Sequence record: PQ799574.1
DNA: 64,000 bases
Strand: one strand, 5' to 3'
DNA from: Escherichia phage vB_EcoM_Maryam
The translations under genes were made by a program, and so were the position numbers. Shown here in pieces: positions 2,644-9,522 of the stretch; within the stretch, counting starts at the first letter, position 1; each line of letters opens with the position of its first letter. The notes under the pieces are model-generated. The model was given only the letters and a program-made list of their open reading frames with translations, did no database searches and had not been told where the DNA came from.

Positions 2644-3096
2644 ATGGCATATTCTGGAAAATGGGTTCCTAAAAATATATCAAAGTATAGAGGTGACCCT
2701 AAAAAAATTACGTATAGATCAAATTGGGAAAAATTCTTTTTTGAATGGTTAGATAAAAATCCAGAAATTATTGCATGGGGTAGTGAAACAGCAGTAATTC
2801 CTTATTTTTGTAATGCAGAAGGGAAAAAACGTAGATACTTCATGGATATTTGGATGAAAGATTCTTCTGGACAAGAATTTTTTATTGAAATAAAGCCTAA
2901 AAAAGAAACACAACCACCAGTTAAACCAGCACATCTAACGACTGCAGCGAAGAAAAGATTTATGAATGAAATTTATACATATTCTGTTAATACCGACAAA
3001 TGGAAAGCAGCGCAAGCTTTAGCTGAAAAGCGTGGAATAAAATTTAGAATTCTAACAGAAGATGGATTACGAGCTCTTGGCTTTAAGGGGGCATAA
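2644..3096 (+). CDS. 4: head completion protein gp4
   Basis: 150 aa; synteny 53 / 4-2-3. Confidence 0.8.
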
Positions 3097-3920
3097 TGGC
3101 TATTTTTCAAATAATTAATGAAAGCACACCCCAAGTTCCAAAGGTTAAGCAATCATTAAACGAAAAGAAATGGATTCAGATAGGTCTTGAATATAAAAAG
3201 GCCAAAGCAAAAGGAATGACAGGAAAGCAATTTGCTGAAGAAAGAGGAATCAAATACTCTACGTTTACTTCGGCATTGTCAAAATATGCTTCGGGAATTA
3301 AAACGGCTGAAAAGATTCAAAAGCTTGAATCAAAACCAATGAATAAGCTCAATAAGCAAGAAAGACAACTGCTTATGATAAATTCATTCAGACAAACATT
3401 GCGCGATAAAATTCGTAATGAAGGTGCAGCAATTAATAATAAAACCAGAAAATGGTTTGCTGAAACTATTAAGCAAGTAAAAGGACATAAAGTTGTTCGC
3501 CCGCAGCCGGGACGAATATATGCTTTTGCTTATGATGCTAAACACAAGGAAACTCTTCCTTACTGGGATAAATTTCCTTTGATAATTTACCTTGGTTTAG
3601 GTAAGCATAATTTAATGTACGGATTGAACTTGCACTATATTCCACCTAAAGCTCGTCAGCAATTTCTAGAAGAGCTTTTAAAGCAATATTCAAATACACC
3701 TACTATTACTAATAAAACGAAATTAAAAATTGATTGGAGTCAAGTGAAAGGATTTAGGGGTGCAGACCAAATGATTAAGGCATATATACCTGGTAATATT
3801 ATGGGTAGCCTTGTTGAAATCGCCCCGAAAGACTGGGCGAACGTTGTGCTGATGCCACTTCAGCAGTTCGTTTCAAAAGGAAAACGTTTCTCTGCAAACA
3901 AAGTCTGGTCAAATATCTAA
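3096..3920 (+). CDS. 2: DNA end protector protein gp2
   Basis: 274 aa; start overlaps gene 4 stop; synteny. Confidence 0.8.
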
Positions 3921-7257: not shown

Positions 7258-7354
7258 ATATGCTTTAAGAATTATTTGTTATTATTAACTCATACCGCAC
7301 TGATTAATACCCTCTATCATCAAGGGCTCTTGCTAAAGAGCCTTTGTTAATAAT

Positions 7355-7427
7355 TGGGAATTAGCCAAGTTGGTAAGGCACTGGATTTTGATTCCAGGAT
7401 GCAAAGGTTCAAGTCCTTTATTCCCAG
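7355..7427 (+). tRNA. tRNA-Gln (anticodon UUG)
   Basis: cloverleaf folded by hand: 7-bp acceptor tgggaat/attccca, anticodon loop ttTTGat, T-loop ttcaagt. Confidence 0.85.
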
Positions 7428-7428
7428 C

Positions 7429-7512
7429 GCGAGAATGGTCAAATTGGTAAAGGCACAGCACTTAAAATGCTGCGGAATGATTTCCTTGTGGGTTCGAGTC
7501 CCACTTCTCGCA
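7429..7512 (+). tRNA. tRNA-Leu (anticodon UAA)
   Basis: acceptor gcgagaa/ttctcgc, anticodon loop ctTAAaa, long variable arm, encoded CCA. Confidence 0.85.
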
Positions 7513-7520
7513 CCAAATTT

Positions 7521-7594
<74 letters not shown>

Positions 7595-7604
7595 ATTTAA
7601 TTTA

Positions 7605-7678
7605 CTCCGTGTAGCTCAGTTTGGTAGAGCGCCTGATTTGGGATCAGGAGGTCCAAGGTTCAAATCCTTGTATGGAGA
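7605..7678 (+). tRNA. tRNA-Pro (anticodon UGG)
   Basis: D-arm agctcagtttggtagagc, anticodon loop ttTGGga, T-loop ttcaaat. Confidence 0.8.
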
Positions 7679-7680
7679 CT

Positions 7681-7767
7681 GGAGGTGTGGCAGAGTGGTT
7701 GAATGCACCGGTCTTGAAAACCGGCAGTCGCTCCGGCGACTCATAGGTTCAAATCCTATCGCCTCCG
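7681..7767 (+). tRNA. tRNA-Ser (anticodon UGA)
   Basis: acceptor ggaggtg/cgcctcc, anticodon loop ctTGAaa, long variable arm, T-loop ttcaaat. Confidence 0.8.
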
Positions 7768-7774
7768 TAATTTC

Positions 7775-7847
7775 GCTGATTTAGCTCAGTAGGTAGAGCA
7801 CCTCACTTGTAATGAGGACGTCGGCGGTTCGATTCCGTCAATCAGCA
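7775..7847 (+). tRNA. tRNA-Thr (anticodon UGU)
   Basis: acceptor gctgatt/aatcagc, anticodon loop ctTGTaa, T-loop ttcgatt, CCA follows. Confidence 0.85.
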
Positions 7848-7851
7848 CCAA

Positions 7852-7925
7852 GGCCCTGTAGCTCAATGGTTAGCAGCAGTCCCCTCATAAGGGAAAGGTT
7901 ACCAGTTCAAATCTGGTCTGGGTCA
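7852..7925 (+). tRNA. tRNA with anticodon CAU (Ile-2 by position in T-even cluster, or Met)
   Basis: anticodon loop ctCATaa, T-arm accag-ttcaaat-ctggt, CCA follows; D-stem and top anticodon-stem pair imperfect. Confidence 0.6.
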
Positions 7926-7937
7926 CCAAATTAATTA

Positions 7938-8021
7938 GGGGAGTTATCCCGTAGAGGTAGCGGTGTGGACTGTAAATCCATTGTCATTGCGACTCGGGTG
8001 GTTCGACTCCATCACTCCCCA
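7938..8021 (+). tRNA. tRNA-Tyr-like (anticodon GUA, long variable arm); possibly pseudo-tRNA
   Basis: acceptor ggggagt/actcccc perfect, anticodon loop ctGTAaa, variable arm resembles bacterial tRNA-Tyr, T-loop ttcgact, CCA follows; D-arm pairs poorly. Confidence 0.5.
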
Positions 8022-8070
8022 CCAATTTATGACTCGTCGTGAGACGCTCAGTTCTTTATTAGGGACTGAT

Positions 8071-8736
8071 ATGCATTTTTATCTTTATAAAATAACAAAT
8101 AAAATTAATAATAAAATTTATATTGGTGTGCATTCTACCGAAAATTTAGATGATGGATATATGGGTTCTGGTAAATTATTAAAAAGAGCCCAAGACAAGT
8201 ATGGTATAGAAAATTTTTCTAAAGAAATATTAGAGTATTTTGATGATAAAGAATCTATGCTTGAAGCCGAGAAAAATATTGTCACAGAAGAGTTTTTAAA
8301 TAGACCAGATGTGTATAATTTAAAACTTGGCGGTGAAGGTGGATGGGACCATATAAATATTCCTGGGATGCTAAACCAGAAGAAAGATGCTAGCTTAAAA
8401 GGAGCTAAATCGTTTAAATCGCGTTTTGAAAATGATATTTTACTTCAAGAAAAATATCGTAAAATTGGTTCAAATGTATTTAAACGTTTGTGGTCAACTC
8501 CTGAATACAAGGAAAAATTTTTAAATAATAGCAGATTTTTAAATAAGCATCATACTCCTGAAACTATTAATAAAATGAAAGAAATTCATGTTAAAAATAA
8601 TCATCAGAAAGGAGAAAAGAATTCCCAATTTGGTATGATGTGGATTCATTCATTAGATGAAAAAGTTTCTAAACGTATTAAGAAAACTGACCCAATTCCA
8701 GAAGGATGGTTTAAAGGTCGAAAAATGAAATTTTAA
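8071..8736 (+). CDS. segB: GIY-YIG homing endonuclease (SegB-like)
   Basis: 221 aa from ATG 8071; YLYKITN...KIYIG motif; embedded in tRNA cluster like T4 segB; upstream ORF extension to 7963 overlaps a tRNA. Confidence 0.75.
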   Translation: MHFYLYKITNKINNKIYIGVHSTENLDDGYMGSGKLLKRAQDKYGIENFSKEILEYFDDKESMLEAEKNIVTEEFLNRPDVYNLKLGGEGGWDHINIPGMLNQKKDASLKGAKSFKSRFENDILLQEKYRKIGSNVFKRLWSTPEYKEKFLNNSRFLNKHHTPETINKMKEIHVKNNHQKGEKNSQFGMMWIHSLDEKVSKRIKKTDPIPEGWFKGRKMKF

Positions 8737-8739
8737 TTA

Positions 8740-8812
8740 CGGGGCATAGCTCAGAAGGAAGAGCAAGGACCTTCTAAGTCCTGGGTCGTAGGTTCGATCC
8801 CTACTGCCTCGA
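8740..8812 (+). tRNA. tRNA-Arg (anticodon UCU)
   Basis: acceptor cggggca/tgcctcg, anticodon stem aggac/gtcct with loop ctTCTaa, T-loop ttcgatc, CCA follows. Confidence 0.85.
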
Positions 8813-8833
8813 CCAATTATAAGTGAGGAAAAT

Positions 8834-9184
8834 ATGAAAGGTAATGTTTATTTAGTAGTTCATGATTTAACATTCTATTTTAATCATAATGATACTGTTA
8901 TTTCTGAACGTGTAATTAATTTGCTTTATCAGCATGCAGATTATGTTTATGTCGAAAACGAATTTGGTCATTGGCAATTTCTCAAAAATCGTTCATTTGG
9001 TTTAGATGGTTACGAATATTTTGAACGTAAAGACCTTTTAGATAAAATTCCGTTATCTACACAATATCAAAATCATAAGTCTTTACATAAATGTCGACTA
9101 ATTCGAAATGCTGAATCTGCTTATGAAGCAATTGATTTATGGCGTAAACGCCGTGAACAGATTGATGCTTTAAAAGAATATTAA
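8834..9184 (+). CDS. hypothetical protein
   Basis: 116 aa; ggaaaat RBS. Confidence 0.5.
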   Translation: MKGNVYLVVHDLTFYFNHNDTVISERVINLLYQHADYVYVENEFGHWQFLKNRSFGLDGYEYFERKDLLDKIPLSTQYQNHKSLHKCRLIRNAESAYEAIDLWRKRREQIDALKEY

Positions 9185-9493
9185 GAAGCCGGGTCGCTAC
9201 CGGTAAGTCGTCGGACTGATGTTCCCTGAGTAAGGAATTGCGTTAATAATCCTTGCGTTTATTGATGCCCTCTTACATCACAGCAGAAACGGCGCACCGA
9301 ATTATCGATTCGAGGAAATATCTTTGCCGTAAGCCGAGTAGCGTTTTTGACGGAACGTTCGGATATGGTCGAGATATGGCCTTTTAAAAATATTGAGTAG
9401 CGTCAACTGCTTGATAACCGGGTTCGAATCCCGGCGTTTCGTACAAACACTTGCCTTAGCAGGTGGAACCCCGACAAGGTTGCCGCAAGGCTT
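9185..9493 (+). ncRNA. candidate structured stable RNA region (T4 species 1/2 RNA-like, tRNA-like T-arm)
   Basis: about 300 bp with no ORF, locally GC-rich; GGGTTCGAATCCCGG T-arm-like motif at 9418-9432; sits just past tRNA-Arg where T4 encodes small stable RNAs. Confidence 0.4.
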
Positions 9494-9522
9494 AGCCCCG
9501 ACCGAAAGGTTGGGGCTTTTTG
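9494..9522 (+). terminator. rho-independent terminator (hairpin + T run)
   Basis: agcccc...ggggct stem followed by ttttt; first copy of a repeated module. Confidence 0.6.

Follow-up and report, generated by a model that had tools for sequence, protein, structure and literature searches.

Both the T-even tRNA-Tyr gene and its association with SegB are known from earlier work, through the EMBL entries and the RB3 and T2L work of 2008 and through the biology of phage T6 in 2026. Brok-Volchanskaya et al. (NAR 2008, PMC2330249) reported tRNA-Tyr genes in T2L, RB1 and RB3 (EMBL entries AJ880101, AJ884577 and AJ884578, respectively). In that study, the T2L tRNA-Tyr gene was mapped as a minor SegB cleavage site and the preferred cut site was located in tRNA-Asn.

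In T6, tRNA-Tyr has been detected by Northern blot and tRF-seq, and Septu PtuAB cleaves the variable loop of both the host and the T6 tRNA-Tyr (Chihara et al., Nat Commun 2026, PMC13096335). Overexpression of tRNA-Tyr restores T6 plating under Septu, deletion of the tRNA-rich region sensitizes T6, and T4, which has segB without tRNA-Tyr, does not escape. The T6 escape mutants carry tandem 718-bp copies containing tRNA-Tyr and a segB gene shortened at its C-terminal end by 28 aa, an amplification that depends on the nuclease activity of SegB (PMC13096335). Since Septu cleaves the T6 tRNA-Tyr too, and the stability of this tRNA seems to be lower than that of its host counterpart (PMC13096335), the benefit is one of dosage and not of resistance.

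A related function has been described for the T5 family, where tRNA-Tyr rescues from retron-Eco7 only with its anticodon and stems in place (Azam et al., Nat Commun 2024, PMC11555353). This requirement points to a role in translation. T5 makes use of a strong promoter and not of gene amplification (PMC11555353).

The locus considered here lies in a 64-kb stretch of phage DNA, referred to as the window, in which a tRNA-Tyr gene is found directly upstream of segB. The features of the locus are collected in Table 1.

Table 1. Features of the tRNA-Tyr and segB locus in coordinates of the window
Feature	Position	Strand	Evidence or remark
Seven tRNA genes: Gln, Leu, Gly, Pro, Ser, Thr, CAU (Ile/Met)	7355..7928	+	Order as in T4
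ATTAG within AATTAATTAGGGGA, at the tRNA-Tyr 5' edge	7934..7938	+	Candidate left partner
tRNA-Tyr(GUA) gene, class II, CCA encoded	7938..8024	+	ARAGORN, Rfam tRNA, RB3 identity, covariation
D hairpin, shifted register: stem CCGU (7949-7952) with GCGG (7960-7963)	7949..7963	+	Conserved pairing
tRNA-Tyr anticodon stem	7965-7969 with 7977-7981	+	5 bp
tRNA-Tyr anticodon GTA	7972-7974	+	
tRNA-Tyr variable arm GTC-ATTGC-GAC	7983-7993	+	Long
tRNA-Tyr T arm GGTGG-TTCGACT-CCATC	7997-8013	+	5-bp stem, TTCGA-type loop
GGTTCGACTCC in the T arm, matching the SegB recognition core GGTTCRANTCC	8000..8010	+	Pattern match
tRNA-Tyr discriminator A	8021	+	
Encoded CCA	8022-8024	+	
tRNA-Tyr/segB spacer, 46 nt	8025..8070	+	
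segB, GIY-YIG homing endonuclease, 221 aa	8071..8736	+	Pfam and SegB identity
ATTAG in the 3' part of segB	8652..8656	+	Candidate right partner
tRNA-Arg(UCU)	8740..8815	+	ARAGORN, Rfam; directly 3' of segB

Identification of the tRNA-Tyr gene

Nine tRNAs were found by ARAGORN within the 64-kb window, all of them in the interval 7355-8815, and an Rfam search of the window recovered the same nine. Two of the checks that had been proposed for this region, a tRNA predictor and the tRNA covariance model, return the gene. ARAGORN called a tRNA-Tyr with anticodon GTA at exactly 7938-8024, and the Rfam tRNA model (RF00005) scored it at 30.2 bits, a marginal pass against the gathering score of 29. The same model gives 54-73 bits for the remaining eight tRNAs of the window. 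The tRNA-Sec model is a slightly better fit to the tRNA-Tyr (34.4 bits) and remains under its own threshold of 47.

The acceptor stem pairs GGGGAGT (7938-7944) with ACTCCCC (8014-8020) in seven of seven Watson-Crick pairs, and the seven-nucleotide anticodon loop CTGTAAA (7970-7976) presents U33, GUA and A37. These elements, together with the long variable arm and the encoded CCA, are present as the initial annotation had described them. The acceptor, anticodon, T and variable arms have the architecture of a class II tRNA. Bacterial TyrRS recognizes an identity set composed of G1-C72, A73, G34/U35 and a long variable arm, and all of these elements are found in the sequence. A single-sequence minimum free energy fold is not a cloverleaf (z = -0.91), although such folds are usually uninformative for tRNAs. 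A promoter scan produced eight matches where 8.6 were expected, which is not above chance.

The gene was also placed correctly between the seven-tRNA block and a SegB-like endonuclease, as is evident from the ARAGORN order and from the 97% identity of the endonuclease to the SegB proteins of T4, T6 and GRNsp7, which have the same start and the same length of 221 aa. The stretch marked in the initial annotation runs to 8071, where the A of the ATG of segB lies; 8025-8070 is spacer.

Conservation and covariation

The window belongs to a T4-like phage of Tequatrovirus. Over 7300-8850 it matches Escherichia phage vB_EcoT_BCU-2 (PV290051) with 100% identity and many T-even genomes with 95-97%. The 87-nt tRNA-Tyr agrees at every position (100%) with the tRNA-Tyr annotated in RB3 (AJ884578). 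Compared to T6, 85 of the 87 nucleotides are identical and both changes preserve pairing: at 7978 in the anticodon stem, a G-C pair in the window is G.U in T6, while at 8012 in the T stem, a G.U pair in the window is G-C in T6. RB3 and T6 thus combine near-identity with the position after the CAU tRNA that is expected of a T-even orthologue.

A blastn search matched 1,368 of 50,697 phage records, 410 of them at 95% identity or higher. Among the matches listed, most are annotated as tRNA-Tyr and they belong to Tequatrovirus, Karamvirus, Vequintavirus, Felixounavirus, T5-like phages and others. An alignment of 18 distinct homologues was made; 11 came from annotated records, and the others were obtained by a pattern scan of IMG/VR. 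Over these 18 sequences the cloverleaf is 96.8% paired, with double-sided (compensatory) changes in 17 of its 24 pairs. None of 500 shuffles reached any of the pairing measures and no slid control came close. Taken separately, the acceptor, anticodon, T and variable-arm helices are each 93-100% paired with compensatory changes, and the invariant columns of the T loop and anticodon loop are retained in the window tRNA-Tyr. Such a pattern is characteristic of an RNA under structural selection and not of a pseudogene. From this evidence, the gene is considered to be a functional phage tRNA-Tyr(GUA) gene and an orthologue of the tRNA-Tyr genes of RB3, RB1, T2L and T6, with a probability of roughly 0.88.

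Proposed function

By analogy with T4 and T6, the tRNA-Tyr would be transcribed with the tRNA cluster and excised by host tRNA-processing enzymes. From this biology and from the identity elements, it would presumably be charged by host TyrRS, and the charged tRNA would read UAC and UAU. One likely role is to increase the tyrosine-decoding capacity available to a tyrosine-rich proteome. Tyrosine makes up 4.27% of the residues in the 51 long ORFs of the window, and the Tyr content of E. coli is lower, a composition compatible with a possible supply role. A second likely role is to enlarge the tRNA-Tyr pool when Septu PtuAB or retron-Eco7 cleaves the tRNA-Tyr variable loop. The two roles are mutually compatible and both are likely.

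An alternative is that the tRNA-Tyr acts as an uncharged decoy that absorbs a tRNA-Tyr nuclease and does not serve as a decoder. Septu also cleaves the T6 tRNA-Tyr, at C48, and overexpression partly protects the host tRNA-Tyr, for which the authors themselves write "decoy or supplement" (PMC13096335). A non-canonical connector between the acceptor and D stems, described below, could also impair charging. Against this, the TyrRS identity elements are complete, an anticodon change in the T5-family tRNA-Tyr abolished rescue (PMC11555353), and the purifying selection seen across families on the anticodon loop and acceptor end fits decoding. A decoy that is never charged is therefore regarded as improbable, and a tRNA that decodes tyrosine codons is preferred.

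SegB and the candidate amplification unit

The endonuclease has a Pfam GIY-YIG score of 26.8 bits (cutoff 22.6) and retains the catalytic residues Y17 and G19 (KIYIGV). With the tRNA-Tyr gene directly upstream of an intact segB, the window has the arrangement of the T6-type module. A copy of ATTAG at 7934 is separated by exactly 718 nt from another at 8652, and the 30-nt contexts of both copies are identical in T6 (L014, 1965 and 2683). Recombination at the pair would remove approximately 28 aa from the C-terminus of SegB, matching the T6 escape mutants. The T6 report describes a 718-bp repeat unit of tRNA-Tyr and segB together with microhomology (PMC13096335), and the ATTAG pair may represent the microhomology partners of this 718-bp unit. 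The unit is present in single copy, with no existing tandem amplification within the window.

From these components, it may be proposed that SegB cuts in and around the tRNA genes and that the ATTAG pair would permit tandem copies of tRNA-Tyr and segB, raising the dosage of tRNA-Tyr. At the level of sequence, the window has every component of the SegB-amplifiable anti-Septu module of T6. These components of a SegB-driven "genomic accordion" are those that let T6 escape Septu. Expression of the tRNA, rescue and SegB-dependent amplification would be expected in the window phage by analogy to T6.

It may be asked if the gene serves chiefly as DNA that SegB recognizes or that recombines during homing and amplification, with an RNA that is dispensable. 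The SegB core motif in the T arm would favor such a role, as would the minor SegB site mapped to the tRNA-Tyr of T2L (PMC2330249) and the candidate amplification microhomology that borders the gene on its 5' side. The covariation of the RNA, however, is also maintained where there is no adjacent segB, namely in RB3, Vequintavirus, T5-like phages and E. coli plasmids, and tRNA-Tyr supplied alone in trans rescues T6 (PMC13096335). A purely DNA-level role is very improbable as a result; a functional tRNA agrees better with the evidence.

The D hairpin

A canonical D arm, with a 2-nt connector followed by a stem of 3-4 bp, is not found in the window tRNA-Tyr. The initial annotation had remarked on poor pairing of the D arm, and this holds for the canonical register used in the ARAGORN fold, which consists of U.G, C-G, CxC and C-G. 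Over the 18 homologues only 54% of the cells in this register are paired, and the third position is an invariant CxC at which no pair ever forms. When the stem is shifted by 2 nt in the 3' direction, it is paired in 18 of 18 homologues, five of which (from IMG/VR) were chosen after their connector pattern had been noticed. The canonical register was therefore rejected as the conserved structure in favor of the shifted stem. Pair 2 of the shifted stem changes from CG to GC in two IMG/VR sequences and from CG to UA in BF23, while in pair 4 two sequences have C-G instead of U.G.

The 11 blastn-derived homologues (phage or E. coli plasmid records) and the IMG/VR sequence L057 were not chosen for their connector pattern, and all of them pair in the shifted register, with BF23 adding its compensatory change. 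L057 is nearly identical to the plasmid copy of the tRNA-Tyr. The shifted D loop has seven nucleotides (AGAGGUA) and carries the equivalents of A14, G18-G19 and A21. As a consequence of the shift, the connector between the acceptor and D stems has four nucleotides (UAUC, 7945-7948) where two are usual, and it has five in Karamvirus AS6 and phage WPEC1. The non-canonical 4-nt connector may have an effect on folding or charging. The lineage with the shifted D hairpin spans Tequatrovirus, Karamvirus, Vequintavirus, Felixounavirus, T5-like phages, an Enterococcus phage and E. coli plasmids.

Rfam tRNA scores are low throughout the phage tRNA-Tyr family (27.7-41.6 bits), and ARAGORN misses three of the 18 homologues (AS6, WPEC1 and Enterococcus phage 113). 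The tRNA-Sec model has a long D stem. The low Rfam scores, the better fit to the tRNA-Sec model and the ARAGORN misses arise because the D arm is shifted family-wide; thus, the shifted D arm accounts for the tendency of tRNA finders to under-score or miss phage tRNA-Tyr genes. Since low scores extend to the functional T5-family tRNA-Tyr, they are a trait of the family and not a sign of decay.

This bears on the suggestion in the initial annotation that the gene may be a decaying pseudo-tRNA, which would here be a remnant beside the segB insertion with no working product. The low Rfam score and the CxC mismatch in the D stem of the ARAGORN fold would favor decay, and Shigella phage CM8 does carry a copy that is chimeric or truncated, in which the gene is broken after GGTTCGACTCC. 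The signs expected of a pseudogene (broken stems, lost loop nucleotides and relaxed constraint) are nevertheless absent from the window. All stems are intact and covary, the D stem is perfect in its shifted register, RB3 has the identical gene, the two differences in T6 are pair-preserving, and the T6 tRNA-Tyr is expressed and active (PMC13096335). Decay can be considered highly improbable, slightly more so than a role confined to DNA, and the gene is again best read as a functional tRNA-Tyr.

A literature search for an unusual D arm in phage tRNA-Tyr found no description in the papers covered; the D-stem is named only in a figure legend of Azam et al. 2024 (PMC11555353). The family-wide shifted D hairpin is the sole modestly new point of this analysis and it leaves the identity of the gene unchanged. 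It is a tentative idea, with the odds well against it, that the shifted hairpin with its connector of 4-5 nt departs from the canonical tRNA core for adaptive reasons. If this were true, the shifted D hairpin might alter recognition by host tRNA-targeting nucleases or modification enzymes while charging is kept.

The segB start and the spacer

The upstream extension of the endonuclease ORF noted in the initial annotation does exist, in that a 257-aa ORF is open from a GTG at 7963 to 8736. The overlap is mechanical, arising because there is no in-frame stop inside the tRNA, and homologues start at 8071. The PV290051 record, which is the best match in GenBank and annotates no tRNAs, begins the segB CDS at the ATG at 8029, 14 codons too early, and the extra 14 aa have no counterpart in the SegB proteins of T4, T6 or GRNsp7. 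A SegB with an N-terminal extension, from GTG 7963 or from ATG 8029, would suit the open frame and the GenBank CDS start, but it has almost no chance of being correct when SegB in T4, T6 and GRNsp7 begins at the ATG equivalent to 8071, RB3, which lacks segB, conserves the sequence 5' of 8025 as a tRNA, and a Shine-Dalgarno-like AGGGA precedes 8071 with nothing comparable before 8029.

The AGGGA (8061-8065) lies just before the segB ATG and is covered by a 9-bp hairpin (8048-8069). The spacer folds at -14.1 kcal/mol (z = -2.56) and the hairpin was detected by a terminator scan as well. In T6, a G to A change at 8062 turns a U.G pair of the hairpin into U-A. The spacer was considered as a remnant of tRNA-Asn and this was rejected, as similarity to the RB3 tRNA-Asn was found by blastn-short only at 7743-7760, 7857-7869 and 9421-9431, which fall inside other tRNAs and rnaC. 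It was also rejected as a homologue of the Ile-segB spacer of T4, as there was no blastn-short match in the region and the alignment is unrelated.

Origin of the gene

A blastn search of 5,426 complete E. coli genomes (E<=1e-3) found no chromosomal match to the tRNA-Tyr. All 273 E. coli matches are on plasmids of 72-120 kb with approximately 90-94% identity, and recent capture of the host tyrT or tyrU was rejected because the matches are plasmid-borne only. On the one plasmid that was examined, a cluster of Asn, Tyr, Thr and Ser tRNAs adjoins a DNA ligase gene. The chromosomal tyrT, tyrV and tyrU genes of E. coli share the anticodon, the class II architecture and A73 with the phage tRNA-Tyr. 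The host tRNA-Tyr differs from the phage gene in that its connector has the canonical 2 nt and its D stem is 3 bp long.

T4 had been described in the initial annotation as having eight tRNAs and no tRNA-Tyr, in agreement with the AF158101 listing, and the gene had been put forward as a possible functional acquisition. This is probably the wrong direction. Since RB3 and T2L carry both tRNA-Tyr and tRNA-Asn without segB, and since SegB prefers the tRNA-Asn site, it is the absence from T4 that looks like a loss, probably during segB homing. The simplest interpretation is that segB homing replaced tRNA-Asn in the lineage of T6 and the window, and replaced both tRNA-Tyr and tRNA-Asn in T4.

Comparison with known systems

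In RB3, the gene order is Met, Tyr, Asn and Arg without segB, and the tRNA-Tyr directly follows the CAU (Ile/Met) tRNA as it does in the window. Both RB3 and T2L have tRNA-Asn after tRNA-Tyr, whereas the window has the 46-nt spacer and segB in its place.

T4 shares the seven upstream tRNAs with the window, followed by segB, tRNA-Arg, rnaD and rnaC, with approximately 97% identity; its order in AF158101 is Ile, segB, Arg, rnaD and rnaC. Unlike the window, T4 lacks tRNA-Tyr as well as tRNA-Asn, and its Ile-segB spacer and the first five codons of SegB are unrelated to those of the window. The absence of rnaC and rnaD had been suspected from an ORF after tRNA-Arg, but this was rejected when both were found at 9184-9443.

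The T5-family tRNA-Tyr genes (T5, BF23 and SP15) are more distant, with approximately 82-85% identity to the window. They have the same shifted D hairpin, and their variable arm GUCAUUGCGAC is that of the window. Their genomic context is different and contains no segB.

The closest arrangement is that of T6, where the order Thr, Met, Tyr, segB and Arg is the same as in the window. The window keeps tRNA-Pro and tRNA-Ser, both of which are missing from T6, and it differs from T6 in its tRNA-Arg allele and in an extra 116-aa ORF after tRNA-Arg. The variable arm in T6 is identical to that of the window, with the position of Septu cleavage included. Judging from these sequences, the phage should behave like T6, and not like T4, on hosts with defenses that cleave tRNA-Tyr.

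The D hairpin of the phage tRNA-Tyr family

Across the phage tRNA-Tyr family, the D hairpin is displaced by 2 nt in the 3' direction, leaving an acceptor-D connector of 4–5 nt (7945–7963 in the window). The displacement is present in fifteen homologues fetched from phage, plasmid or IMG/VR records (L005–L013, L016, L054, L067, L077, L080 and L105). In the shifted register, in which CCGU (7949–7952) pairs with GCGG (7960–7963), pairing of the D stem is 100% among the homologues and compensatory changes are present. The third pair of the canonical register, as placed by ARAGORN, is formed in none of the homologues. Rfam scores for the family are 28–42 bits, and ARAGORN made no tRNA-Tyr call in Karamvirus AS6, WPEC1 and Enterococcus phage 113.

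Relatives on plasmids and in other phages

Genes that are ~90–94% identical to the phage tRNA-Tyr were identified at 273 E. coli plasmid loci in 269 genomes; no E. coli chromosome carried such a phage-like gene. The context was examined in one plasmid, the 72-kb L016 (NZ_CP024264), where an Asn-Tyr-Thr-Ser tRNA cluster (2921–3471) adjoins a DNA ligase gene, an arrangement which suggests that L016 is a phage-plasmid. In the rV5-like Vequintavirus nimi (L005, 1505–1591), the tRNA-Tyr is ~95% identical to the T-even gene yet resides in a tRNA cluster unlike that of the T-even phages (Arg-Tyr-Ser...). Such a close match in a different context points to individual tRNA genes having been exchanged horizontally among phage families that are not related.

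A broken copy is found in Shigella phage CM8 (L015, MK962750, 1516–1596), where it is neither annotated nor called by ARAGORN. The copy is whole as far as GGTTCGACTCC; past the break, it continues into an unrelated 3' end, CATCGGTCACCCCA, directly 5' of tRNA-Arg. It looks like a chimeric pseudo-tRNA with its break at the SegB core motif, GGTTCRANTCC.

The segB gene and the downstream region

The public record that best matches 7300–8850, PV290051.1, annotates none of the nine tRNAs, labels SegB as a "hypothetical protein" and places its start at 8029. Its listing gives 46.9 kb for this "complete genome", a length that falls short of the 64-kb window and well below the ~165–170 kb of the genomes behind the other Tequatrovirus matches.

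Just 5' of the segB ATG at 8071, a 9-bp hairpin (8048–8069, z = -2.56) sequesters a Shine-Dalgarno-like AGGGA and could provide translational control of SegB, a toxic endonuclease. At position 8062, the T6 variant converts a U·G pair of this hairpin to U-A.

Features downstream of segB
Feature	Position	Remarks
tRNA-Arg(UCU)	8740–8815	Allele unlike T6 tRNA-Arg
116-aa ORF	8834–9184	Between tRNA-Arg and rnaD
rnaD homologue (T4 stable RNA, species 2)	9184–9298	97–98% identity to T4
rnaC homologue (T4 stable RNA, species 1)	9305–9443	97–98% identity to T4
Strong terminator-like hairpin	9494–9517	10 bp with 7 G-C pairs; 3' of rnaD/rnaC homologues

The tRNA-Arg alleles of T6 and the window differ at many positions while the adjoining segB genes are ~97% identical, suggesting from sequence comparison that the 3' end of segB is a recombination boundary. 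The 116-aa ORF has no match in Pfam. ORFs have been reported in the equivalent region of T2L. T4 has no counterpart of the ORF between tRNA-Arg and rnaD. The equivalent gene in Shigella phage CM8 is annotated as "trna.2 protein".
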